Part shown: piece by piece, positions 27,617 to 64,000 of the stretch | Position numbering within the stretch: the stretch's first letter is position 1 | How the letters are laid out: the number at the start of each line of letters is the position of its first letter | Assembly: GCA_000091205.1 (NCBI GenBank) | Contig: AP006490.2 | Reading direction: 5' to 3' (one strand) | Length of the DNA: 64,000 nt | From: Cyanidioschyzon merolae | Lineage: Eukaryota | Position numbers and translations under genes: made by a program | Notes under the pieces: generated by a model | Told to the model about the DNA's origin: nothing | Database searches by the model: none | The model's input: the letters and a program-made list of their open reading frames with translations, nothing else

Positions 27617-29437
27617 ATGTTCATAACAGCACACTGTTTTCGTCATTGTATACAGGGCGTCGGCTCAACGAGCTGGCACACCAGGGACTGCCCTCGGGGA
27701 CGATCGAAAAGGTGCCGCCCGGTGTGCGCTTCCCGAGCACTCCCAGCGCTACGTGCGACGCAGGATCGTACAGAGACTGCTGCGAAACTGACAGTGGCGA
27801 GTAATGGTGATGCTCCAGTTTACTGCTACATCGCCAGTTCACCGTTCAAGAACGATTACCTGGAGCGCGTCCTTAACGCCCGCGTTTACGAAGCGGCCGT
27901 TGAGACACCGCTTGACAACGCTCCGCTGCTGTCGCGTCGCCTTGGTCGACGAGTCCTGCTCAAACGCGAGGATCTCCAGCCAGTTTTCAGTTTCAAGATC
28001 CGTGGCGCCTACAATATGATCGCACTCACAGACATGAGCCAGTACGAAGGCGGAGTCGTTGCAGCCTCCGCTGGTAACCACGCGCAGGGCGTTGCACTGA
28101 GTGCGCAGCTGCTCGGGTTGCGTGCCACCATCGTGATGCCTTGCACCACACCGTCGATCAAAGTGAATGCGGTTCATCAACGAGGCGCTGAAGCCGTGCT
28201 CCACGGCGACACGTTCGATGACGCACAGGCACATGCACTGGCGCTGGCAGCGGAGCGTGGGGCGCTTTTCGTGCCCCCGTTCGACCATCCCGATATCATT
28301 GCGGGTCAGGGAACGATCGCTCTGGAGATACTTCGCAAGCATCCTGGACCCATTGAGGCAATTTTTGTGCCAGTTGGTGGGGGCGGTCTCATCGCTGGCA
28401 TTGCTGTGGTTGTGAAGCGCCTTCGTCCCGAGATACGGATTATCGGTGTCGAGCCGTTCGATGCCGATGCCATGTACCAGAGCCTGCAGGCTAGTCAACG
28501 GGTCCGTTTGGCGCAGGTCGGGGTATTCGCTGATGGGGTTGCAGTGAAAGAGGTCGGCACCGAGACGTTTCGCCTGTGTCGAGACCTCGTCGATGAGGTC
28601 ATCCGTGTCGAGAACGACGAAATCTGCGCAGCCATTAAGGACATGTTCGAGGACACACGCTCGATCCTGGAGCCGGCTGGGGCACTCGCTATTGCCGGCT
28701 TGAAGCGCTACGCGCAGCGGAACATGGACACTAGCACTAGCACTAGCAATAGCACTAGCAGCAGTAGCAGTAGCAGCAATAGCAGTAGCAGTGGTACCCT
28801 CATTGCCATTGCGAGCGGTGCGAACACCAACTTCGATCGACTTCGACACGTCAGTGAGCGAGCAGAGATCGGCGAGCACCGTGAGGCGGTACTAGCGGTT
28901 CGTATCCCGGAACGGCCGGGCGCCTTTCGGGCGATGATGAACGCACTCGGGCCGGGTGCCAATATCACCGAGTTCAACTACCGCTACGCATCACCGGAAG
29001 TTGCGCATGTGTTTGTGGGACTCTCGGTCTCGGATCGACGCGGTGCTGCAGCAGCAATATCAAAGCTTGCCGCCCAAGGGTTTGTGGCTACAGATCTCAC
29101 CGACAATGAGATGGCGAAGTTGCACTTGCGCCACTGCGTTGGGGGCATGGGTGGACCACACTTCGCCCCAGCGCACGAGATTGTCTACCGCTTTGAGTTC
29201 CCGGAGCGCCCAGGGGCGCTAGCACGATTCCTGAATGGTCTTCGTGGCTGGAATATTACCCTGTTTCATTATCGGAATCACGGTAGCGATGTTGGTCGGG
29301 TGCTTGTCGGCTTGCAGGTGCCGCCATTGGAGCGTTCCACCTTCTTAGAGTTTGTGGAGCGCCTTGGCTACGCGTACGTGGACGAGACCCAGAATATCGC
29401 CTACCGGATGTTTCTGCGTCTGGGGGATACTCCATGA
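27617..29437 (+). CDS. biosynthetic threonine dehydratase/threonine ammonia-lyase (IlvA-type; PLP fold plus C-terminal regulatory domains) with N-terminal extension (possible organellar presequence) and a Ser/Asn-rich linker insertion
   Basis: Near-collinear with E. coli IlvA: YLERVLNARVYEAAVETPLDNAPLLSRRLGRRVLLKREDLQPVFSFKIRGAYNM, ASAGNHAQGVALSAQLLG, FVPVGGGGLIAGIAVVVK, regulatory part EFNYRYA...DNEMAKLHLRHCVGG...NITLFHYRNHGSDVGRVLVG. Insert TSTSTSNSTSSSSSSSNSSSSG at ~28729-28797. Confidence 0.9.
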   Translation: MFITAHCFRHCIQGVGSTSWHTRDCPRGRSKRCRPVCASRALPALRATQDRTETAAKLTVASNGDAPVYCYIASSPFKNDYLERVLNARVYEAAVETPLDNAPLLSRRLGRRVLLKREDLQPVFSFKIRGAYNMIALTDMSQYEGGVVAASAGNHAQGVALSAQLLGLRATIVMPCTTPSIKVNAVHQRGAEAVLHGDTFDDAQAHALALAAERGALFVPPFDHPDIIAGQGTIALEILRKHPGPIEAIFVPVGGGGLIAGIAVVVKRLRPEIRIIGVEPFDADAMYQSLQASQRVRLAQVGVFADGVAVKEVGTETFRLCRDLVDEVIRVENDEICAAIKDMFEDTRSILEPAGALAIAGLKRYAQRNMDTSTSTSNSTSSSSSSSNSSSSGTLIAIASGANTNFDRLRHVSERAEIGEHREAVLAVRIPERPGAFRAMMNALGPGANITEFNYRYASPEVAHVFVGLSVSDRRGAAAAISKLAAQGFVATDLTDNEMAKLHLRHCVGGMGGPHFAPAHEIVYRFEFPERPGALARFLNGLRGWNITLFHYRNHGSDVGRVLVGLQVPPLERSTFLEFVERLGYAYVDETQNIAYRMFLRLGDTP

Positions 29438-47707: not shown

Positions 47708-50700
47708 TTAGCTTCGACGAGCCGGCAAGGATACAAGACGTACAGGAGCGGCTCCAGAATCAGCCGGCTGCATATTCGTATCCAGTGCAAAGCGCGGCCT
47801 ACTTTCGGACGATTTCCCCCCGATGTCAACATAGGGTGTCGAGTCGGGCCTCAGGGAGTCTAACGTTTGCTGCGACCGGGTTAGCTGACGCGACGTCGAG
47901 CTGCTGCTGTGGTCTGCGGCGGCCACTTGGGAAACATCCCCGTTTCGCGAAGAAGCGGCACGCTCCGTTATCGGATGTAAGGGCAGATCTGTGCTCGCTT
48001 CCTCTTCCGCAAGTCGTTTCCATTCATTTGCAAACTTACGACATATCTTCCCAAAAAGCGCGAGCAACTGAGCACTTTCAACCTGCATTTCTGCCCCGAG
48101 CTCTTCGAGTGGACGGCGCTGGAGTCCCACACCAACCAGGATAGCCTGCTGCGCCGGCGACAGCGTAATCCGCTCTGCAGCAAAATGGCCTTCAAAGTAC
48201 AGACGACTCAGCACCGGAATGATATCCAAAATCACGTGATAGTCCAGCAGATGGTTTGCATACGCTTGCAAACGCCGCAAGTCGTGCATGGAAAGTAGCA
48301 AGCGAAGTTGTGCCGCGTTCCACAGACTGGCGTCGGGCGGTGCAGCTCGCAAGACGTCCAGCACGAGACCCAAGGGTAACGAGCGAAAGTCGTATGAGAG
48401 CAGCGACAGAAACCGTGCTCGCCAGTCCAAGTGCAGGGCCCTAAATCCCTGTTCATGGGCCTGCTTCAAACTCCGAAGCATGATGCAGGTATGCTCCGCA
48501 GTGACCTCATTCGGGGTAAGTCGCACGTAGACTGGCAGCATACCGATGCGATTCCAGAATCGATACAGTCCGTGTGAGAGACCGAACGAAACCCCCAGAT
48601 AGTCCAGATCCGGAACCCTCTGTTCACTCAGTCTGTAAAGCAACGGCTCCGGTACCGTGTCGTCATTGATGCTTCCCACAGACAGATCGGGTTGTGCATC
48701 ATCGGTTTCTCGCAGAGTCTTTCGTTCATGCTGCTGCACACCGGAGGCCACTCGACGGCGGAAATGTTCCACGAGGCACTCCATGGCGCGGGTGCCGTAG
48801 CCCATACCTTGCACATCAGGATGCGTAGCAATGCGGATGACCCGAGCACCTGCCAGTTGAGCAAAGGCTGTCTCCTGGAACTGTTGCGTTAGCGTCCACG
48901 GAATGAGGTCCCCAGCAGCTCGCTTCCCTCGCGACAACTGAGACTCGGTGTGTTCACGCGAGAGGCGCCCCTCGAGTCCTAGCTGAATGGCGCACAGCAC
49001 ATCCGGTAGTCGTTTTGGATCAGAGGAAGTTGGCCCCAGCAGCACATACAGCTGCTGGTTCGATGCATCGCTCAGCATCTGAAGATCATTGGGGGTGTTC
49101 TTATAGTGCGAGGACACAAAAAGCGCCATTACCCGACGGAGGAAAATTTCCGCTAGGGCGTGTCCACTGAAAAGAACGTCGCGATTGACTTGGCATAGCG
49201 TGCACATGGAAGGGTGCGGAAGCGCACGTGTCTGCAACGCTGGCGCTTCTGTCGTCTCCAGGCAGAGGAGCGCGTGAAGCCACGCCTCCACCGGATCGTT
49301 GCGAGCGTAGCGGATGGGCTCCTCGAGAACAAGCTCGTGGAAGCGTCGACCATATTGCCGGGTGCTGGAGTCACAGCCGTGCTCTACTGGCGGCTCGATG
49401 CCGCCATTTGGGGTATGCGACACATCTTCCGGCATTGGGGGTGGCACAAGCCTACTTTCTGCCGCCACTGAAGTGTTTTGTTGAACATGGCGGCGAGCCT
49501 GCGCGATCAGCTTGAGGGAGAGACTACGGCCGGTTCCTTCGTAACCGAAGATCGTCGACGATAGGAAGACGTGACACGATTTGCTGGGCAGAAGTGAGAG
49601 TATTCGTTTCACAAGTACCAGCGGTATAGCGGCTGCTTCATCAATAATGACGAGGTCAGCGCTTACGAGGGCACCAATGGTGGCGGCATCCACCCGCCGG
49701 ATAGCCTCTGGCTCAAGGTACGAGACCTGACGCACCCGCCGCCCAAGCATAGAGAGCTTGCTTATGCAGCGATCGTGTCGGGATTCTAGCACATAGTCCG
49801 TATGTTCTTGTAACTTGAGCTCATTCAGGCCTGACACTAAGAGTGAAAATAGAGTCTGGACGTTGTCCGCTGCGGGCGCTGTCACCACAATGGACGTGTA
49901 GCCGAGCGCAAGCGCCGCAGCCGCCGCTAGCCCCAGCGCCGCAGATTTGCCCCTGCCACGAGCTGCTGTCAAGACCACCATGGACGCTGCAAGCGCAGCC
50001 GGAGTTGTTGTATCGACGTTGCGGGCCAGCAGGGCATGAAGCGTCTCCAGGACACGAGCCTGGTCGAGCGTGCGGGTGCGACGCAGCAGCGGCCCTAGCA
50101 CTTGCAGGTCTGCACGGGATGACCATAAGATTTCGAGCTGCTTTTGGCGAAACTCCGCTTCCGAAGTGACGTTGGAGTCGCCCACGGTGCCGCCAACTTC
50201 CGGAGGCGAACGAACATGAATCCGGGGAATAGAAGCGAGATCTTGCGCCCTGGAGCTATCATCTGCATTTGCAGCCTGAGGTATCGAATATGCTGACGAG
50301 CAGCTCGCACCACCAACGGCAGGAAGCACATTGAGTTCATCATCTACTGCAAGCGCCATAGGGCAGGTCTCGAGGCTGAGGACGAGTCGCCGATTAAATC
50401 GTGGTACTATATCCGGGCACGATTCCGTGCGATAGTGGGCGTGTACGTCCATTTTCAGCGTGTACAGCTGCCGCAAACTCTCCATGTTATGCAAGAGGAA
50501 CAATACCAAACCGCCTCCCTGCACAGTCTCGATCGTGCGTGCAAGAAGGTTCGGTGTAAGGGCTCCAAAGTCCTGTAGAACAAGGAGACCATAAGTGTTC
50601 CCAAGCACCTTTTCGGATTCAGAGTAGTACGAGAAGCGGATGTTAGCTGTCGAGACGAATAGTTCAAAAAGGTCTTCGGTTTTGGCGTCCACAGAGACTC

Positions 50701-50947
50701 CACCGTGTCGCAGCTTTTTGCGGAGTTGTCGCAGGCGTTTGCGGCGGTGCGACGAAAAACCCAGTTCCTTCTTATACATCCAAAGGACATCTGGCCGCGG
50801 CCTCGTTCCGATCCGAGTAAGTAAGTGGTAAAAGAAAGGGACCTGATCTTTGGCGTGATCACCAACAACAAAGAAAAGCGCGCGGGTGTGTGTCTCGTAG
50901 GCGCGAACGAGCAGCTGCCGTACGCGTTCATCAACACGCTTCTTCAT
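47708..50947 (-). CDS. NAT10: RNA cytidine acetyltransferase NAT10/Kre33 (helicase-like ATPase plus GNAT acetyltransferase; rRNA/tRNA ac4C synthase)
   Basis: N-terminus nearly collinear with human NAT10: KKRVDERVRQLLVRAYETHTRALFFVVGDHAKDQV...RPDVLWMYKKELGFSSHRRKRLRQLRKKL...FELFVSTANIRFSYYSESEKVLGNTYGLLVLQDFGALTPNLLARTIETVQGGGLVLFLL; P-loop AARGRGKSAALG; DEAAAIPLVLV; GNAT region QGMGYGTRAMECLVEHF. Confidence 0.9.
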   Translation of the reverse strand: MKKRVDERVRQLLVRAYETHTRALFFVVGDHAKDQVPFFYHLLTRIGTRPRPDVLWMYKKELGFSSHRRKRLRQLRKKLRHGGVSVDAKTEDLFELFVSTANIRFSYYSESEKVLGNTYGLLVLQDFGALTPNLLARTIETVQGGGLVLFLLHNMESLRQLYTLKMDVHAHYRTESCPDIVPRFNRRLVLSLETCPMALAVDDELNVLPAVGGASCSSAYSIPQAANADDSSRAQDLASIPRIHVRSPPEVGGTVGDSNVTSEAEFRQKQLEILWSSRADLQVLGPLLRRTRTLDQARVLETLHALLARNVDTTTPAALAASMVVLTAARGRGKSAALGLAAAAALALGYTSIVVTAPAADNVQTLFSLLVSGLNELKLQEHTDYVLESRHDRCISKLSMLGRRVRQVSYLEPEAIRRVDAATIGALVSADLVIIDEAAAIPLVLVKRILSLLPSKSCHVFLSSTIFGYEGTGRSLSLKLIAQARRHVQQNTSVAAESRLVPPPMPEDVSHTPNGGIEPPVEHGCDSSTRQYGRRFHELVLEEPIRYARNDPVEAWLHALLCLETTEAPALQTRALPHPSMCTLCQVNRDVLFSGHALAEIFLRRVMALFVSSHYKNTPNDLQMLSDASNQQLYVLLGPTSSDPKRLPDVLCAIQLGLEGRLSREHTESQLSRGKRAAGDLIPWTLTQQFQETAFAQLAGARVIRIATHPDVQGMGYGTRAMECLVEHFRRRVASGVQQHERKTLRETDDAQPDLSVGSINDDTVPEPLLYRLSEQRVPDLDYLGVSFGLSHGLYRFWNRIGMLPVYVRLTPNEVTAEHTCIMLRSLKQAHEQGFRALHLDWRARFLSLLSYDFRSLPLGLVLDVLRAAPPDASLWNAAQLRLLLSMHDLRRLQAYANHLLDYHVILDIIPVLSRLYFEGHFAAERITLSPAQQAILVGVGLQRRPLEELGAEMQVESAQLLALFGKICRKFANEWKRLAEEEASTDLPLHPITERAASSRNGDVSQVAAADHSSSSTSRQLTRSQQTLDSLRPDSTPYVDIGGKSSESRPRFALDTNMQPADSGAAPVRLVSLPARRS

Positions 50948-50949
50948 CG

Positions 50950-53800
50950 AAAGCTGCTAACGGTACCAAAGTTCGTTGCAGGTCCGTACCGATCCAAAGC
51001 GTAGCCACGCTGTAAAGCGCCGTTCTCAAGTGGAACGTCGCCGGTCGTGTACAGTAGTGACGAGGCACCCGCCCTAAACATAGAGTACCAAGCGACGTGC
51101 AGACGCCTCGTAGTTTTGGACCCGCCACGTTCTACTGCTTCCAGGTTTTTCTCATATAGTTCCACTTTGGGTTTTCTACCCCAACAATCACTTTTGTCCA
51201 TTCTGGAGGTCTTTTCTCCATCATCGCACATCTACTCATATAGAGCGCGGCGCTAATATCTCGGTTCACAAACTCCATACGTTTCTTGCCATCATTGGTT
51301 GTACTAAACAATGCAGGTACTCCATCAACTTTCGCCCTCCTTTCCATTCGCTCTTCCGTCAACGCTCCATGCTTTTTTATATCCTTCGGGGCTCCTTTGG
51401 CACTTTTCCATCTCGACGCTTTCAAGTACACAACCCAACTCGTGTGGTGCATAGGACGTTCGAGACTCATTTACAGGTATCGTAACGAGACTCCGTGTAC
51501 ACTCCTTGTACGTTCTTGTCGTCGAGGCTGGTGTACACCCTTTTTGGGTCTTCCAGCGCCCTGCTCCGTATGCTACTACGAGCATCTGACATTCATTCTC
51601 CTTCAGGGCGCTCAACTGATTGAAAAAGTTGGCAAATGCACGCTGCCACCCACAGTATAGATTGATTCGCAGACGAGCCCACGGAGGCTTTGTAGATTCT
51701 TTCCACATTTCCTCCTACTAAACAAGGCGAACCTTCCATGGACTCGCGAAAAGCTTCAGTGTCCGCTCTGGCGCTCGCCGCCTCGCTCAAAGCTTCCACG
51801 TGCTCTTTCATTCATGCATTCCAGGCCCCAATTTTCTTCCTCGCACTCATGATTCCCGATTCTCCATGGTATCTCGCTCTCGAGAACATCAACAGACGCA
51901 TGTCTTTCTGAAGCAAGTTACCGTCAGTACCATCTTCCGCACGCTTGGGAGCAGCGGTGGTACTGATATTCGTGTTGCCGGGGTCCGCGCCAGCGAAAAG
52001 GTCGTTATCCTCCACCTCCTGCGTCGCAGGACCCGCCACCTTCTTTTCTTCCTGCTTCGCCGCGCCAACGACAATATGGTTATCTCCACCTCCTGCGCCG
52101 TTGGATGCTCCTACTTCTCATCTTCATCCTTCGCCAAGGGCGGAACTGGACGATCTGTCTTCAAGCGCCGATGGTGTCCACACATGGCTACCCTATCGGT
52201 CTCGATCAACCCAGTGAATACCTTTTTCTTGCTCGTTTTCAGACGTTGGGAATCGAAGGTATTGTTCCAGTACGTGTCCCGGTTTTCACCGGAGAACACC
52301 TCCCCGCTGAAATCGAGCTCCGGGCTGATCTCCTGCATAATGCCATGGATTCTGGAGTCGATACTCACAAAATGTGACTTGAAGTTGCATAACGGAGCGA
52401 CACTGAAGCGGCTCTCCAGAAGCGCAGCCTTCTGTGTCTCCCACTCTTCATTTTTCCCCACGCCCAGTTCCGTTTCGGCCTTGCATTCCAGTTCTCGGTC
52501 CAAAAACACGAAATGTCGCTGGATGCGATAATAATATCTTTCTTTATCTTTTTGCAACTCTGATATCTTGTATGTTGGACTCATCAGCTCCAAGACTGCA
52601 TGGTGCTCTTGTATAAACGCACGGATGAGGGAGTCCTCATTTATGCCATCGTTTGACGTCTTCTAGCCGACAAATTCGACCTCATCTTCATGCTCACGAT
52701 TGTTCGTGATGCGTTTGATAATCGCCCGTTTCCCATTACGAGAGACGCCCGGGCAGAGTGCAAACACGGCGCGTAACATGAAACGTTCGAGGTTCACCGT
52801 CAAATGGTTCTCCAGGTTCGTGATGTACTTCATCGCCCCATAGCCGTAAATATTCTGGTCACCCTTGCATCGAGTACCATTGAAGCTGTAAAAGGGATGC
52901 TTTTCGTGGAGAGCATGCACTAGCTCATTTTCACTCCGCGCTTCCTCTGTACCAAGTATCAGCTGACGAATTAAGGTCTTGTCGAAACCTCGTCTGGAAT
53001 CTCGACAGTTTCCATGTGCGCCACGTCGCGATACATCTCCCTCGCCTAATGCATCAGTCCTGAAGAAGCCTTTATAATGCTCATGGAGTACGAGTCGCCA
53101 CGTTTTATGATAGAGTCTCGCAATTTTTCCATGTATGGATCCTTGATTTGTCCAAGAAGAAAGGTTTTCACAATCATCTCGTCGTACAGTTGCCTTTCCC
53201 GCAGCCTGCGACGTAGGGCCTCCCCTTGGCTTCTTCTCGACTTCCTTTTCTTCTGGACTCGGCACTGTTTTTTGTTTTTTCGGGCACCCAGCGACCCTGG
53301 GCCTCCAGGATCGTGGACTTGCTTTGTGATAGCTTCCTTTTTTAGTTTTTTTTTGAAAAACAACGCTCTTTGAACGCTTCTGCGATATACTGCGAAAAAA
53401 CACTTGACTAGATATGTTTGAGGTGTGAAACAAAAACGAACTGAAAGACTGTACTTGGCTACGACCTGAACGGAAATCCAACTTTTTTCGGTAGAACAAC
53501 ACGCTTCTGATCGAGATCGCGTTTCCCTTCAACAACGGCATGCGCATCGTGTCAGTTGACTGACTGATCTCCCAGTTGCGCTCATTTAGCGCAATGCATC
53601 CACTGCGCGAGACGCTACTCCGATCGATGAAGGACACGTGTCCGAAAACCCCGCCTTGGCACATGCGTGTTCGCATACCACTGCAGCCAAAATAAAGTAT
53701 CGTAGATTGGAAACTCACGTAGAATGATCTCTTGCTACAGGCTCTGTCGCTGGTGCCCATTGCAGTACCGCCCTGACATACATGGAGATGCAGCGGCCTG
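50950..53800 (-). other. AT-richer compositional island with a chain of frame-broken minus-strand ORFs (365, 160, 127, 112, 95 aa): probable decayed gene or mobile-element relic
   Basis: Clear drop in GC versus flanks (e.g. 53330-53480). Successive same-strand ORFs 52663-53760, 52111-52593, 51325-51708, 51132-51470, 50944-51231 in different frames. No catalytic motif (RT YxDD, integrase, DDE) recognised by eye. Confidence 0.3.
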
Positions 53801-54787
53801 GTACGATACCCGTCGACGCTTCTATCAAACGCGTATCTTTCTCTGCGGCTTACGCGTGTGCGGATGAGGTATGCATCACTCTACTCAATAGAAATTTCGT
53901 TAATTTTATTGATCGTATATAAACAAGACACGGAATGATTCCTGACCAAGGATATTCGTTTAATCAATATGCTTGTTATGCATGCCGCACCGACGCTGGA
54001 ATAAGGACCTGACCTGAATTTCGCTACTATCCTGTGCCATGGGCTGGAGCTGATGCCTGTTCAAGTCATTGCCATGCTGCCGTGGTTGTCCAAGTTATGG
54101 TGCCTGCTTCGTCCTCAGGATCCGGCGATCTTGGCGGAGGCAGAGCACACAGGTAGCGTCCATGTCTGCCACGAGGTTTGAGCCTTCCATCTCGCCTGGC
54201 ACGATCGTGGCACTTGACAAAAGCGCATACTGTATTCTGGTCTACTCTATCAGATTATTTTCAAAAGCCTAACCCGTACATCGAGCCCGAACGAGGCACC
54301 CCTGAAAACAAACGCCTTTCGAAAGTCGAACGGCGCCAGCGGTGCACAGTAGTGGCGAGTGGCCCGCCCTAGAAATGACATCTCCAACTGACGTGCAGAC
54401 GCATCCAAAATAAGATACCACCTTTGAAAATTTCCTTATGCCTCCTCTACGGTACTCGTCGGCGAGCTACGTGGAAGTTCGTCTACGATTGTTGTGATCT
54501 CTGAGCGCAGCACTGCGGAACCCTTGGCACCAATTACTGATGAGGTTGTTGATGGGAAGCATAGGAGATACGTCTAGTTTCTGAAAAAGACACTGAGCGC
54601 TTGTGCTAGATGTGCTCAACGCTAGACATTCTACGGGAGATTTAGGTCGGACTCTGGACAATGGATGGGTGATCACTCGTGCAGCTACGCAAAAGAGGTT
54701 TTTGACTGGATACGCACACCTACGCGAGCGATTCTAGCCGGTGACGTGATCGGCAGCTTTGCACCGGAGAAAATCTAATCCAAGAAA

Positions 54788-55863
54788 ATGCAAGCTCTTT
54801 TCGTTTCTGTTCCGCTGTACCAGGAAAGACATATTGTTTGCGCGCGCGCTGCAACCCGAGCACCGTTCCTGCTGCGTACGCATCGTGACGGTTACTTCGC
54901 AGCTGTACATCGTCACCATTGCCAGCATCCGCTGCCCTTCGTGGTGCAGCGTTCGCCTGCGGTGCGCAGGCATCGTATGCCGCATCTTCGTATGGGTCCG
55001 AAGCAGTCGCAGATCGCCGTCATCACTGGCGCGTCCTCTGGGGTCGGTCTGTATGCAGCTCCCGCTCTGATCAACAAGGGCAACTGGCACATCGTCATGG
55101 CATTTCGTGACATCGACCTCGTGGAGCGCGCAGCAAACAGCGTAAACCTTCTAAAGGACGCCTATACCGTGCTGCATTGTGTTATGGCTGATTTCGCCTC
55201 TGTGTTGAAGTTTGTGAGAGAGCTGTCAAGTGTGGCGCGCGTCGATCACCTGGATACCCTGATCTGCAATGCCGCAATCTGGCATCCGCCGGACAAGAAA
55301 CGGCGTTTCACGGTGGACGGCATCGAGGAAACCATGCAGGTATGCCATCTGAGCCATTTGCTTCTATGTCGGGAGCTGTTGCCGAAGCTGAAAATATCGC
55401 GCAGGCGCATTGTGTTTCTGACGACTCAGACACACTCGCCGAATTCGCTACCGGGAAAGATCCCCCGCAGGCTCGTCTCGGGGATTCGTCTAGTCTAGCC
55501 GCGGGGCTTGGTCCGCAGACGACAGGCATGGTAGAAAGTGGTCCGTTTGAGCCCACAAAAGCCTACAAAGACGCCAAAGCCGCGAACGTGTTATCAATGA
55601 AGGCGCTCGGTCATTGATACGGCCGCGACGGTGTGACCTCTGTGACGATTTTCCCGGGATGTGTCGCCAACAGCAACCTCTTCCGCGAAAAGCGTGGCTG
55701 GTTCCGCTACATATTCTTCCCGATTCATCAGAAGTACATCACTCGGCAATACGTTCCCAATGATGAGGCCGGACGCCGTGAAGCCGAAGTGGCGACCCAG
55801 GGACAGTTCTCGGACTCGGGCTCGTATTATCAGTGGCGTGGCAAATATACGTATGGGGGATAG
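54788..55863 (+). pseudogene. POR: light-dependent NADPH:protochlorophyllide oxidoreductase (POR, SDR family) homolog disrupted by a frameshift (~55420-55440, within acacac) and an in-frame TGA (55615-55617)
   Basis: Three consecutive ORFs (54788-55498 frame 2; 55342-55617 frame 1; 55633-55863 frame 1) together are collinear with plant/algal POR: IAVITGASSGVGL...WHIVMAFRD (GASSGLGL..WHVIMACRD); TLICNAAIW..P..FT.DG.E; ...LGDSSSLAAGL...FEPTKAYKDAKAANVLSMKALGH*YGRDGVTSVTIFPGCVANSNLFREK...FPIHQKYITRQYVPNDEAGRR ([68 protein letters not shown]). TGA sits where POR has Arg (CGA). Confidence 0.7.
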
Positions 55864-56526
55864 AAGTCCGAACCGCACGTTATTGAACCAACGTACGAAA
55901 TCGACAAGGCAGATCAGCTTTACGAACTGAGTCTTGATCTGATCGACCAGGCGTTACGGAGGCGAGGCCTCAAGTCGACTATCTTGGCCCCTGTCTAAGG
56001 TTTGTTAGTGGTGAATATGGGATGCGCCTTCGAAGCGCAGACCGCTGCGTCGAGGACGCATGTGGGAGCAACAGCGTAACGATGAAACGGCACCCCACTG
56101 TCACGATCGGATAGTGATCGGGTGAAAGGGCACTCCTCCTGATGTGGTGAGCCAAAATTGCTTCGCAAGTCATAAAGCGTACTGCAGTAGTGATTAATAT
56201 AGCTATAGCTATGAGCTATTTCGCATCGAATGCGCCAGAGACTGCCAACTGTGGTCGTTCAAGAGGGCAGAGCGTGTTTATTTGGGTAATCTGTAACTCT
56301 TTTTGCCATAAAGGATACGGCAATAGAAGCGCACTTGCAGACGTTTGAAAAATCTGTGGGTATTCGATATCAAAGTGGGTCAACGGGCGTGGATTAATGA
56401 AAGCTCGGCAGTGAATGCTCCAGCAAGATATGGTGCATTGAACGAATCCGACCCAAGGATTGTACCAGGCGCTAGCTATGGGTCAGCATTCTGGAACAAC
56501 ATTGAGACTAATCCGATCATATTTGG

Positions 56527-57657
56527 TTGATTTGGATGTTCAAACACGCTTGCAGTGACTTTCTCAATGATGTGTTTGCATTGAGGAAAGCATTCCCTAC
56601 TCCAACACCAAAAACTTCGCGGACGCCTACCACCATCTGCTCCAATGAGCTCTGCGGATCTCCAGGACAGTGCATCAACCAGGACGCTTACGAGCAAGTC
56701 GGGTGCTGCTTCAACTCCCAGACGAACGCGTGCACCCTGAAGAGCGTCTCAGCGGCCTGCAGCGCTGTTCCAGTGACGCAGCGCGTCCCCTGCGGCTGGA
56801 GCTACATCTACCCTGACGATTGCACTGCGATACCGGGATGCTGCTGGCAGCCAACAGCGAACGGCATCCTCGCGCCCTGGTGCTACTACGACATCAACCA
56901 TGCACCCCAGGCTTCTGTAGCGTTGCAGGAGGTGCAGGCACCGGTTCCCCTCTGCCCGTCACCGGGAGCGCAGCGCCAGCCGTGCGGCAACGCGGGTATC
57001 AACCAGTTTACCTGCTATGCCCAGGGCTGCTGCTACGACTCGCAGGCGCAGAACCAGTGGGTGCAGAACGGCAAGCAGCAGTGCGACTTTGCGTCGAACC
57101 CGTACTGCTTCCAGCCCGAGAAGACGTGCGCGGTGGGTGAGTTTGAGCGCCAGCCGTGCACGAACGCGGTGAATCACAACCAGCAGCTGACCAATAACAT
57201 CAACAACAACCAGTTTGTGCGTCTGCTGAACACGCTTCTGTACGGGGAGCAGCACGGGACGCAGCGCACGAGCTACGCGCCGCAGCAGTGCCTGGAGGCG
57301 GGTTGCTGCCTGGGGCTTTGCAACGAGTGCTGCCAGCCGGTTACTGAGAACGTGTGCCAGACCTACGGGTACGTCTCGAACTCGCTGAGCGGCACGACCG
57401 GCAACGTATCGAACTCGAGCTATATTCCGTGTGGCCCGGAGTGCTGCAACGCCGAGATAGAGAACTGTACGTACAACCCGTTCAGCAACAGCAATAACCT
57501 GCGACAACAGCAGCAGCAGCAACAGGTGCTGTTGCCGTCATTCTGTGTATGCAAGGACCCTACAAAGCAGTGCGGGACGTACCTGATCGCTTCGGATAAC
57601 CTTGTGAACAAGGTGCGTTGTTGCCGCTCTGGCGAGGAGTGCATCAACAACGAGTGA
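56527..57657 (+). CDS. Cys-rich protein with 3-4 trefoil (P-domain)-like repeats, Q/N-rich; probable secreted/extracellular glycan-binding protein (N-terminus/signal may lie upstream or be mis-called)
   Basis: Repeats with trefoil spacing R-x2-C-G-x8-C-x4-CC-[FWY]: RVPCGWSYIYPDDCTAIPGCCWQPTANGILAPWCYYD; RQPCGNAGINQFTCYAQGCCYDSQAQNQW (cf. TFF1 [34 protein letters not shown]); also VGCCFNSQTNAC and CLEAGCCLGLCNECC. Confidence 0.5.
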   Translation: MIWMFKHACSDFLNDVFALRKAFPTPTPKTSRTPTTICSNELCGSPGQCINQDAYEQVGCCFNSQTNACTLKSVSAACSAVPVTQRVPCGWSYIYPDDCTAIPGCCWQPTANGILAPWCYYDINHAPQASVALQEVQAPVPLCPSPGAQRQPCGNAGINQFTCYAQGCCYDSQAQNQWVQNGKQQCDFASNPYCFQPEKTCAVGEFERQPCTNAVNHNQQLTNNINNNQFVRLLNTLLYGEQHGTQRTSYAPQQCLEAGCCLGLCNECCQPVTENVCQTYGYVSNSLSGTTGNVSNSSYIPCGPECCNAEIENCTYNPFSNSNNLRQQQQQQQVLLPSFCVCKDPTKQCGTYLIASDNLVNKVRCCRSGEECINNE

Positions 57658-58398: not shown

Positions 58399-60678
58399 TT
58401 GTTTCTCTCAGTGGCGCTTTCTTTTCACTGGTGCAGAACCTCTTTCGTATCCCATATGCGAAGAAGATATTTTTCTATATTGAGACTCCTGGTGGTAGTA
58501 TTGGTTGTGTCGGGCACACACACAGTTCGTGGAGTTTTGTCCTCCGAAGATACTTTTTTATGGACCTGGATCGGTGGTAGTAACTCTACCAGCAGTTCAG
58601 GTAGCTACGGTGTTCAGGGTGTGCCAAACACCAGCAACGTGCCTCCGGCGCGGTACGGTGCGGCCTTCTGGACCGGCGCTGACGGGGTGCTCTGGTTGTT
58701 TGGTGGTGGCAGCGACTTGAGAGACGTCTTCGGTGATCTCTGGAACTACAATCTAAGCACGTTCTCTTGGACCTGGGTTGGAGGCTCTGCATCCCTCAAC
58801 TCTGGAGGGGTATACGGCTCCCGCGGAGTTCCCAACAAGAGCAACTATCCGCCTTCGAGGACGGAATCCGCTGCTTGGAGTGACAGCAACGGAAACCTTT
58901 GGTTATATGGAGGCCATAATTTGAACTCGGGCTATAGTGATATGTGGATGTATAATGTATCGTCGGGCGAGTGGACATGGGAGCAGGGATCCAACAAGAC
59001 CAATGTTCCCCCGACATATGGTACTCTTGGGAACTCGTCTTCAAGCAACACGCCTGGCGCTCGTTTCCAACCCGCGACCTGGGTTGGCCTAGATGGCCAG
59101 TTTTATCTCTTTGCCGGATCTAGTCCTAATGGTACGTATTACGGTGACTTGTGGCAGTACAACACAGTGACCAACGAATGGAGCTGGATAGGTGGCACTC
59201 AACAGCAGATTCCCTCTGGAAGCTATGGTGCGTTTCGCCAGGCATCGCCGAGCAATTATCCCGCTGGACGTCTCGGAGCCACATCGTGGCGAGACCTTGA
59301 TGGGAACTTTTGGCTCTTTAGCGGTTACGGACAGATTGACGGAAATGGCGGCTCTCTGAATGATTTATGGCTGTACAATGTCAGCTCCAAAGAATGGACT
59401 TGGATGTCTGGAAATGACAGTGTTGGTTCGGATGGGGCAGTATACGGCGAGAAAGGAGTGCCGTCATCGAGCAACACTCCGGGGTACAGGTCCTCTTCCT
59501 CTGGATTTGTAGACTCGTCAAACACTCTGTATCTCTTCGGTGGTTATTCACCCGGTTTCTGCAACGACCTGTGGACGTTCAATACTACGAGTCTTGAATG
59601 GACTTGGGTAGACGGTGACAATACAACGGATGGAGCCTATAGCTACGGCGAGCTTAACAAGACAAGCAATACAACGCTTCCACCTCCGCGAGCTTATGCA
59701 GTTCTTTGGAATACCGATCAAAACGACCCGGTCCTGTTCGGAGGCGTAGGCAACTCAGGTTCCCTTAACGACCTCTTCACATTATACATCGCAACACCGA
59801 CGCCTACACCGACACCAACACCGACACCAACACCGACACCAACACCAACACCAACACCGACGGCATCACCGACGCCCTCCGTTACTGCACCCCCGTCGGC
59901 AACGACAAATGTGACGCAGACCGCTGTAGGCGAAGGCTCTGCGGTCTGCTTCCCCGCGGATGCCCCGGTGCTGATCGATGGTCTGGGCAACCATCTGCAG
60001 ATAAGCGAGCTTCGATCAGGTATGGCCGTAATGGGCGTCAATGGGCGCGGGCAACTGGTCGAAGATAGTGTACTAGGATGGTTGCATAACGAGGCCGGCG
60101 CTACTGCGGAGATTCTGGCGATCAAGACGCTTTCCGGAAAGCAGCTGCGTCTGACGAGACAGCATCTGGTATATCGAATGATCGAACACTCTAGAGACTT
60201 TTACGGTATGACGACCGCTTTCTCGTGTATTTCACAGAAGCAGCAGCAGCAGCATCAGCAGGAGCACATACGTCAGAGCCTTGAGCTGGGTACCTCCGCC
60301 GTTGAGGCAGTTTTCGCGGAAGATATCCGCGTGGGCGACGCTCTGCTGGACGTTGCTGCGCATCTGCCGGACCCCGTGGTGGCAATCGAGACAGTAGTTA
60401 CGCACAATGGTCTCTATGCGCCGTTGACTCGCTCAGGGCGCCTTGTGGTCGACGGTGTTCTCGTGAGCTGCTACGGGACGTACGCATCGCATGCCGCGGC
60501 ACATGCTGTGTTGTGGCCTGCGCGGGTCGATGCTCTGCGCAAGATATGGACATCAGGGCTCGGCACAGAGGGTATTGTGGGTATCATGCCATACGCAGAA
60601 AGGCTCTATCACGTTTGGACGAGTGCAGCACGTGTTTTAACGGAGGCTCGCGTAAGTGTTGTAGTTGCAGCCTGCTGA
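58399..60678 (+). CDS. Hog-type protein: signal peptide, Kelch/galactose-oxidase-like beta-propeller (~6 blades), (TP)n linker, C-terminal Hedgehog/intein (Hint) autoprocessing domain
   Basis: Signal-like LRLLVVVLVVSGTHTVRG (Met at 58456). Kelch blades: GAAFWTGADGVLWLFGG...DLWNYN; SAAWSDSNGNLWLYGG...DMWMYN; ATWVGLDGQFYLFAG...DLWQYN; TSWRDLDGNFWLFSGY...DLWLYN etc. TPTPTPTPTPTPTPTPTPT linker. Hint: CFPADAPVLIDGLGNHLQISELRSGMAVMG...LRLTRQHLVY...VVTHNGLYAPLTRSGRLVVDGVLVSCYGTYASHAAAHAVLWPAR (cf. Hh C-terminal CF.G...V....G.....L..GD.VL......LT..H..F...V.T..G.IVVN.V.ASCYA...H..AH.AFAP.R). Confidence 0.75.
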   Translation: MFLSVALSFHWCRTSFVSHMRRRYFSILRLLVVVLVVSGTHTVRGVLSSEDTFLWTWIGGSNSTSSSGSYGVQGVPNTSNVPPARYGAAFWTGADGVLWLFGGGSDLRDVFGDLWNYNLSTFSWTWVGGSASLNSGGVYGSRGVPNKSNYPPSRTESAAWSDSNGNLWLYGGHNLNSGYSDMWMYNVSSGEWTWEQGSNKTNVPPTYGTLGNSSSSNTPGARFQPATWVGLDGQFYLFAGSSPNGTYYGDLWQYNTVTNEWSWIGGTQQQIPSGSYGAFRQASPSNYPAGRLGATSWRDLDGNFWLFSGYGQIDGNGGSLNDLWLYNVSSKEWTWMSGNDSVGSDGAVYGEKGVPSSSNTPGYRSSSSGFVDSSNTLYLFGGYSPGFCNDLWTFNTTSLEWTWVDGDNTTDGAYSYGELNKTSNTTLPPPRAYAVLWNTDQNDPVLFGGVGNSGSLNDLFTLYIATPTPTPTPTPTPTPTPTPTPTPTASPTPSVTAPPSATTNVTQTAVGEGSAVCFPADAPVLIDGLGNHLQISELRSGMAVMGVNGRGQLVEDSVLGWLHNEAGATAEILAIKTLSGKQLRLTRQHLVYRMIEHSRDFYGMTTAFSCISQKQQQQHQQEHIRQSLELGTSAVEAVFAEDIRVGDALLDVAAHLPDPVVAIETVVTHNGLYAPLTRSGRLVVDGVLVSCYGTYASHAAAHAVLWPARVDALRKIWTSGLGTEGIVGIMPYAERLYHVWTSAARVLTEARVSVVVAAC
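59797..59862 (+). repeat. (ACACCG/ACACCA)n coding repeat giving a (Thr-Pro)n linker
   Basis: acaccgacgcctacaccgacaccaacaccgacaccaacaccgacaccaacaccaacaccaacaccgacg read directly. Confidence 0.9.
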
Positions 60679-63600: not shown

Positions 63601-64000
63601 TGGGTACGACGGGAACACAATTCGACAAGATTTTAAGCAGAAATATATCGAAAATAACATAAAGAAAGAATTTTCTTTGTTCGTATAAAATATTTGCGTT
63701 ACAATGGAGACGACCTGGCACCGATAAAGCAGCATTTAAGTACTGTGAGATGTTGAGAGAAAAAAAAAGAAAACAAAAAATGGTGAAGAACGACAAACAC
63801 GAAAGCAACACAAGCAAGGGCGCGATTCAGACCACGCGCGACGGCCGGGGCCCAAAACATAGGTAACGACGAGGCGGTCACATTGATATGCATCGAGAGA
63901 CCTGCGCGTACTGGAGTCTCCGAATGGCCACCCGCAGGACTCTGATGATAAGGATTCCTCTCGGCTCAATTGCTAGAGACATTACTGGGGCAATGGGGGG

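Follow-up and report, generated by a model that had tools for sequence, protein, structure and literature searches.

A sequence for light-dependent NADPH:protochlorophyllide oxidoreductase (LPOR, or simply POR) lies interrupted by a frameshift and stop codons near a chromosome end of the red alga Cyanidioschyzon merolae 10D, and raises the question of whether a gene for chlorophyll synthesis is being lost from this organism or whether the broken copy has a more local history. The stretch of DNA analysed here, which we call the window, covers 64 kb of chromosome 8 (739,753 bp) up to its right end. It is placed at the right end because the CMH numbers of its genes are high and a telomere lies at its 3' end; proteins encoded in it exactly match CMH265C, CMH270C, BAM79913, BAM79916 (ribosomal protein L46), BAM79918 (TMEM120) and BAM79920. 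We hold with high confidence that the POR locus is a non-functional duplicate (an unprocessed pseudogene) of the nuclear gene for this enzyme, situated in a subtelomeric repeat, the PH element, at chromosome end 8R. The finding is an ordinary and largely known one, in that it concerns a dead POR copy in a repeated chromosome-end element published in 2007 (Nozaki 2007, BMC Biol 5:28).

The POR sequence and its three lesions

Three-frame translation of positions 54700-56010 revealed a POR-like sequence on the + strand that starts with the ATG at 54788 and ends with an ancestral TAA at 55996-55998. Its parts and its disabling lesions are as follows.

54788..55998, + strand: full POR pseudogene, with ATG, 68-codon transit-peptide region, mature SDR domain and ancestral TAA
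54992..55998, + strand: mature-enzyme part, from MGPKQSQIAVITGASSGVG to the stop, the region of the substitution counts given below
55462..55466, + strand: lesion 1, a C5 homopolymer produced by a 1-bp deletion from C6, which shifts the frame in the conserved PGKIPPQA block (alignment with L001-L003)
55615..55617, + strand: lesion 2, an in-frame TGA derived from CGA, at a position that is Arg in 16 of 16 intact PORs compared
55861..55863, + strand: lesion 3, an in-frame TAG where intact copies have GAG (Glu), within a cluster of changes at 55852-55878

In this alignment L001 and L002 are JGI metagenome contigs that carry the orthologous locus; their colinearity with the window, at 97-98% identity, begins at 44.8 kb, takes in the NAT10 gene and extends into the downstream trefoil gene. 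L003 is an intact copy, used for a codon alignment.

The homology of the locus to a light-dependent POR, recognized in the initial annotation, proved to be extensive. A phmmer search of the PDB aligned residues 14-323 of the repaired translation with solved PORs, giving E = 1e-65 for Arabidopsis PORB (9TL6/7JK9) and E = 1e-53 to 1e-55 for cyanobacterial PORs (1e-55 for that of Thermosynechococcus), and the homology to these plant and cyanobacterial enzymes includes the segment after the TAG at 55861-55863. The conceptual translation carries the NADPH-binding TGASSGVG and the catalytic YKDAK that characterize LPOR, and the five motifs by which the gene had been recognized (GASSGVGL, YKDAK, FPGC, LFRE and QKYIT) are all found. 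The top NCBIfam model was TIGR01289 (LPOR) at 266.7 bits, the next family scoring 76 bits. This is under the TIGR01289 cut-off of 331.35 bits and 44 bits under the score of the intact C. merolae paralog CMG217C; however, at 310.5 bits CMG217C is itself under the cut-off, which is therefore unsuited to this red-algal branch.

The protein is divided over two frames, the first running from the ATG through ...RIVFLTTQTHSPNSLPGKIP and the second from ...PPQARLGDSSSLAAGL to the gene end, where it is broken by both the TGA and the TAG. The change of frame falls at the C homopolymer, which is C6 in L001, L002, L003 and most other copies. It had previously been placed in a dinucleotide run near 55425, but the run cagACACACtcg (55430-55435) is unchanged in the intact L003 and in L001, an ortholog that lacks the frameshift (the ACACAC tract is the same in the window, L001, L002 and L003), and the original frame is still POR-like for about 10 codons past it (TQTHSPNSLPGKIP). 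The interpretation of the TGA as a CGA-to-TGA transition at a conserved Arg stands, as the orthologous and paralogous DNA reads CGA at this column. The frameshift and the TGA of the initial annotation thus both exist, but the TAG had been mistaken for the natural stop, and the copy has three disabling lesions instead of two. The gene end also had to be moved from 55863, since POR homology continues for 44 further codons beyond the TAG (KSEPHVIEPTYEIDKADQLYELSLDLIDQALRRRGLKSTILAPV) up to the ancestral TAA. The cluster of changes around the TAG is absent from L001-L005. The ortholog loci L001 and L002 are dead as well, albeit through other stops: TAA has replaced AAA at codon 353 and TAC at codon 370.

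With these three lesions the uninterrupted reading frame of a full enzyme is gone and, as judged from the DNA, the window copy is unable to encode a full-length LPOR; it is a homology relic and not a working enzyme. It combines homology to a functional parent with lesions, neutral substitutions and retained flanks, and bears no poly-A or intron-loss signature, as expected of an unprocessed pseudogene; the upstream region and the downstream neighbours were duplicated along with the POR gene. The earlier view that this is a genuine POR pseudogene rather than a functional gene is thereby upheld, and we infer that the copy is neither expressed nor functional.

Constraint and the working POR genes

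We determined whether the window copy has evolved under constraint from lineage-unique substitutions, because synonymous sites are saturated in comparisons with Cyanidiococcus and Cyanidium copies, making pairwise ratios of non-synonymous to synonymous change (dN/dS) against them unusable. Among C. merolae-type copies, the mature region of the window copy has 17 unique non-synonymous and 5 unique synonymous substitutions, a ratio equal to the neutral expectation of 76% non-synonymous, whereas the intact L003 has 1 and 10, respectively (Fisher p = 4.5e-4 against the window copy). Moreover, 16 intact PORs drawn from cyanobacteria and from red and brown algae share 61 invariant columns, at 4 of which the window copy is altered (D64V, L65M, G168S and R209stop); intact Cyanidiales copies have 0-1 changes at the same columns. 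The window copy shows neither the full set of invariant LPOR residues nor purifying selection. The window copy is redundant and evolves without constraint, since chlorophyll synthesis is carried by the intact paralogs CMG217C and CMN338C.

These two paralogs are the annotated intact PORs of strain 10D, each of 403 residues, that share the 90%-identity cluster of the best homolog: BAM79708/CMG217C on the 584,452-bp chromosome and BAM81403/CMN338C on the 852,727-bp chromosome. They lie on chromosomes 7 and 14, respectively, and are 98% identical. The repaired window copy matches CMG217C at 361 of 403 amino acids (90%), aligning over all 403 positions with 42 differences. A second POR, one of the explanations that had been offered for decay at this locus, therefore does exist in 10D in the form of CMG217C and CMN338C. 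The por genes given for the strain by Hunsperger (2015) are CMD190C, CMG217C and CMN338C, 0 of 3 being on chromosome 8, and the plastid genome of C. merolae is without chlL, chlN and chlB (Hunsperger 2015, Table 2), so that POR is its only known chlorophyllide route. In a literature search the gene identifiers CMG217C, CMN338C and CMD190C were not found in main texts, and POR is not mentioned in Cho (2023).

In the supplementary alignment of Hunsperger (2015), CMD190C reads PTKAFKDAK, with Phe in place of the catalytic Tyr of YxxxK, and has other conserved-site changes. From these residues, catalysis by CMD190C may be impaired; only CMG217C and CMN338C would then be clearly intact. A KAFKDAK-like variant is also present in the metagenome protein cluster P0008.

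The PH element at 8R and exchange among its copies

The distal part of the window contains two further genes and ends with the telomere.

56536..57657, + strand: intact trefoil-factor-like gene ('T'); Pfam Trefoil, exact match to BAM79920.1
58399..60678, + strand: gene with Kelch repeats and a Hint module, the 'hedgehog protein' ('H'); Pfam Kelch and Hint (PF01079), named from the Figure 3 legend of Nozaki (2007)
63992..64000, + strand: telomere repeat unit AATGGGGGG, the last nine bases of the window

All chromosome ends of C. merolae have AATGGGGGG as their telomere repeat (Nozaki 2007). No double telomere repeat was found in the window or in the retrieved related loci, the window having only the single terminal unit, which is in keeping with the report that at most 2.5 repeats could be sequenced (Nozaki 2007). 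The POR stop is 8.0 kb from this telomere. In the same paper, homologous subtelomeric elements that reach 20 kb are divided into eight types, the commonest being the PH element, which occupies ends 6L, 7R, 8L, 8R, 11L, 14R, 18R and 19R; the legend to its Figure 3 defines P as NADPH:protochlorophyllide oxidoreductase, T as trefoil factor and H as hedgehog protein. The window has the genes of the PH element in the order of that element (POR, trefoil, Kelch plus Hint), at one of the listed ends (8R) and adjoining the telomere, and its POR locus is the 'P' gene of the 8R copy. The initial annotation had been made without this subtelomeric repeat context, although the locus belongs to a repeated chromosome-end block already described (Nozaki 2007). 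By the same list, CMG217C and CMN338C are presumably seated in the 7R and 14R elements. Only one GenBank protein number lies between BAM79918 (TMEM120) and BAM79920 (trefoil), and this number is most likely that of the intact NAT10 gene (47708-50947); it would follow that the POR relic is not annotated as a coding sequence in GenBank.

A scan of JGI metagenome contigs yielded 43 related loci, whose lesions we mapped against the intact reference. Almost every full-length copy among them carries stops or frameshifts, in shuffled combinations, and those on long contigs are at contig ends with differing proximal flanks, which lends indirect support to homologous copies at several chromosome ends of one genome. 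The alleles were distributed as follows.

C-run deletion (lesion 1): window, L004, L031-L033, L040
TGA at codon 277 (lesion 2): window, L004, L028, L031-L033
GATGGGGGATAG allele (TAG at codon 359, lesion 3): window, L009, L015, L019, L022, L036
TAA at codon 353: L001/L002, L013/L014, L016, L040/L041

The metagenome copies that share lesions with the window are only about 91-93% identical to the window locus or to the intact reference copy. All three lesions thus recur in related copies at this level of identity, in independent hot-spring metagenome assemblies, and the pseudogene is not the 'recent' one that it had been taken for.

Within the POR gene, the relationship of the window to these copies changes along the sequence.

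55122..55900, + strand: divergence jump relative to L001, from 12-16 to 78 differences per kb, with a breakpoint near 55121
55403..55615, + strand: tract in which 12 of 16 informative sites, lesions 1 and 2 included, agree with the paralog L004 alone

Positions 54788-55121 are identical to the 8R ortholog L001. As far as 55121 the window and L001 are separated by 12-16 differences per kb; the figure rises to 78 for 55122-55900 and to 120 for 56011-57077. This pattern indicates exchange among subtelomeric copies with a breakpoint inside POR, probably through ectopic recombination or gene conversion. The tract at 55403..55615 may likewise be read as one of gene conversion or exchange; L004, to which it is related, comes from the same metagenome as L001. 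Because the same lesions are found in other dead copies and the gene is a mosaic of tracts from different copies, the lesions appear to be old and to have moved between ends. They would have been inherited and passed from one end to another through ectopic recombination or gene conversion, and not have arisen recently at 8R. A Cyanidium caldarium-type contig has its POR in an interior position, among housekeeping genes, which suggests that subtelomeric POR amplification is specific to the Cyanidioschyzon lineage.

Two pairs of related loci have peculiarities of their own. L010/L011 (P0002/P0167, 418 residues) have an open frame but read GACSGVG for GASSGVG and MACSD for MACRD, with further core-motif changes of TCNAA for ICNAA and LFLEKRG for LFREKRG; within this family, an intact reading frame therefore does not reliably mark a working POR. 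L025/L026 are inverted POR copies at both ends of the 76,260-bp JGI contig Ga0080006_1178247, both cut at reference nucleotide 850, where the sequence ends ...GGGCCGGGATGGGGGGAGC, similar to the telomere unit. A chromosome may have been truncated within a dead POR copy and healed there by a telomere, or the assembly may be at fault.

Could the gene nevertheless be intact in the organism, its three lesions being sequencing or assembly errors such as the collapse of similar subtelomeric repeats? A change in homopolymer length is a typical error and the location in a repeat family makes mis-assembly possible, but two of the three lesions are base substitutions and each of the three alleles was seen independently in several metagenome assemblies. 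The copy also carries its 17 unique non-synonymous changes, four of them at invariant POR positions, the genome was finished to '100% complete' with all 40 chromosome ends (Nozaki 2007), and GenBank apparently has no coding sequence here; we therefore regard error as highly improbable. Expression of a functional protein through programmed frameshifting plus stop-codon readthrough, or through a small intron that removes the shifted segment, is scarcely credible. The homopolymer is slippery in principle and the catalytic YKDAK and NADPH motifs are kept, but three separate rescue events would be required in a sequence whose substitutions follow a neutral pattern, and the ortholog L001 and the intact copies have C6 and CGA, so the frameshift is not a conserved recoding signal. 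An intron would have nothing to remove, POR homology being unbroken across the shift (PGKIP|PQARLGD), in a genome with only about 27 introns (table in Cho 2023). It is also very unlikely that the residual 236-codon open reading frame (54788-55498, the transit peptide and N-terminal Rossmann half) or its transcript is kept for a new or regulatory role. This frame retains its ATG, its transit-peptide region and 88 bp of upstream sequence 100% identical to L001, and the paralog L004/P0049 has a 236-residue frame with the same end point. However, recent common ancestry on the proximal side of the breakpoint accounts for the identity with L001, and the frame has D64V and L65M at invariant positions as well as two changes at conserved positions that are common to L001, one from Arg to Pro and one from Cys to Phe in MACRD. 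A TAG at codon 12 is already present in related copies.

The broader proposal, that decay of POR signals reliance on the dark enzyme DPOR or the reduction or loss of photosynthesis, starts from the fact that a POR gene does decay. It is contradicted by the two intact POR genes in the same genome, by the lack of chlL, chlN and chlB from the plastid, by the standing of C. merolae as a photosynthetic model alga and by the membership of the dead copy in a subtelomeric repeat family with many others, and we consider its probability negligible. Relaxed selection on chlorophyll synthesis, which had been put forward on the same grounds, is not borne out in an alga that retains intact POR genes; a known repeat with a dead member carries no such signal. 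The preferred reading, a dead copy in the 8R PH element, has points that weigh against it too. The text on the PH element (Nozaki 2007) is silent on whether the 8R POR is dead or intact, on its lesions and on their sharing. For the lesions in strain 10D the source is the finished assembly as published, and for the donor copies in 10D and the placement of CMG217C and CMN338C in subtelomeres it is the literature together with chromosome lengths. Sharing of the homopolymer deletion could in part be recurrent mutation, but 11 further substitutions specific to L004 accompany the deletion in the tract at 55403-55615.

The significance of the locus is slight beyond bookkeeping. When the 'por genes' of C. 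merolae are counted, working and dead copies should be kept apart; the 8R copy, at least, is dead. The shuffled, shared lesions and the divergence jump inside the gene illustrate cleanly, on a small scale, how the subtelomeres of a very compact genome exchange sequence ectopically.

Neighbouring sequence and comparison with known systems

On its proximal side the POR copy adjoins a decayed mobile element.

51010..53900, - strand: relic of a Fanzor1/TnpB-like transposable element, with RuvC-like motifs, stops and frameshifts

The RuvC-like motifs of the relic are ...LVVAYGAGRWKTQKG...VNESRTS... and ...FVNRDISAALYM..., and a better-preserved metagenome copy, L035, reads VVGADPRNTNI / VDEFRTS / VNRDFNAAINI. 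Sequence searches with the transposon-like reading frames next to POR gave nothing significant (best Pfam E = 0.15; no match in the PDB), and the identification as Fanzor1/TnpB comes from the reading of these motifs together with the report of about 150 copies of a Fanzor1 element of about 3 kb, CMe-1A, in C. merolae (Bao & Jurka 2013). The relic lies upstream of most related POR copies, and the homology of most paralogous loci begins at about 51007-51050. Inside it a 74-bp unit is duplicated in tandem (51985-52135).

Elsewhere in the window, the hedgehog-like gene has a (CAACAC)n / 12-bp repeat (59792-59873) that encodes the Thr-Pro linker joining its Kelch and Hint portions. At 27617-29437 on the + strand lies BAM79913, a threonine dehydratase gene that shares a 90%-identity cluster with a second C. 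merolae copy, BAM82602 (605 residues), on the 1,253,087-bp chromosome. This points to a recent duplication of a housekeeping gene that lies well within the chromosome arm, at a distance of 35 kb from the telomere. Between 41400 and 47700 lie about 6.3 kb with no open reading frame of more than 142 residues, tRNA or Rfam match, in an otherwise gene-dense and intron-poor genome; from 44.8 kb on, the sequence is about 98-99% conserved in the metagenome ortholog L001. The tRNA and Rfam scans of the whole window likewise gave no match.

Set beside known systems, the locus agrees with the PH element as described (Nozaki 2007) in organism, chromosome end (8R), gene content and telomere adjacency, and no structural difference from that description was apparent. 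It resembles LPOR (TIGR01289; structures 7JK9, 6L1H and 6RNV) in the full length of its homology and differs from it in that the enzyme cannot be encoded. With CMG217C and CMN338C it shares the transit-peptide architecture, the NADPH and YxxxK motifs and the C-terminus, from which it is set apart by a 1-bp deletion, two premature stops, 42 amino-acid differences and a neutral ratio of non-synonymous to synonymous substitutions.

Among subtelomeric multigene families, those of yeast and the VSG arrays of trypanosomes contain numerous pseudogenes and undergo ectopic gene conversion. The POR copies are like them in forming telomere-adjoining repeats, in mixing intact and dead members and in their mosaic tracts. 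The pool of dead PORs might act as a gene-conversion reservoir or sink for the two working genes, which appear to lie in elements of the same kind, and so shape copy number, repair or variation of an essential photosynthesis gene, but we think this unlikely, as the support covers exchange among dead copies and not exchange with working copies or adaptive value. There is no sign here of dead POR copies serving as a functional reservoir. The cargo differs as well: whereas the yeast and trypanosome families comprise surface, contingency or nutrient-use genes, the gene amplified at the chromosome ends of C. merolae encodes a core enzyme of chlorophyll biosynthesis.

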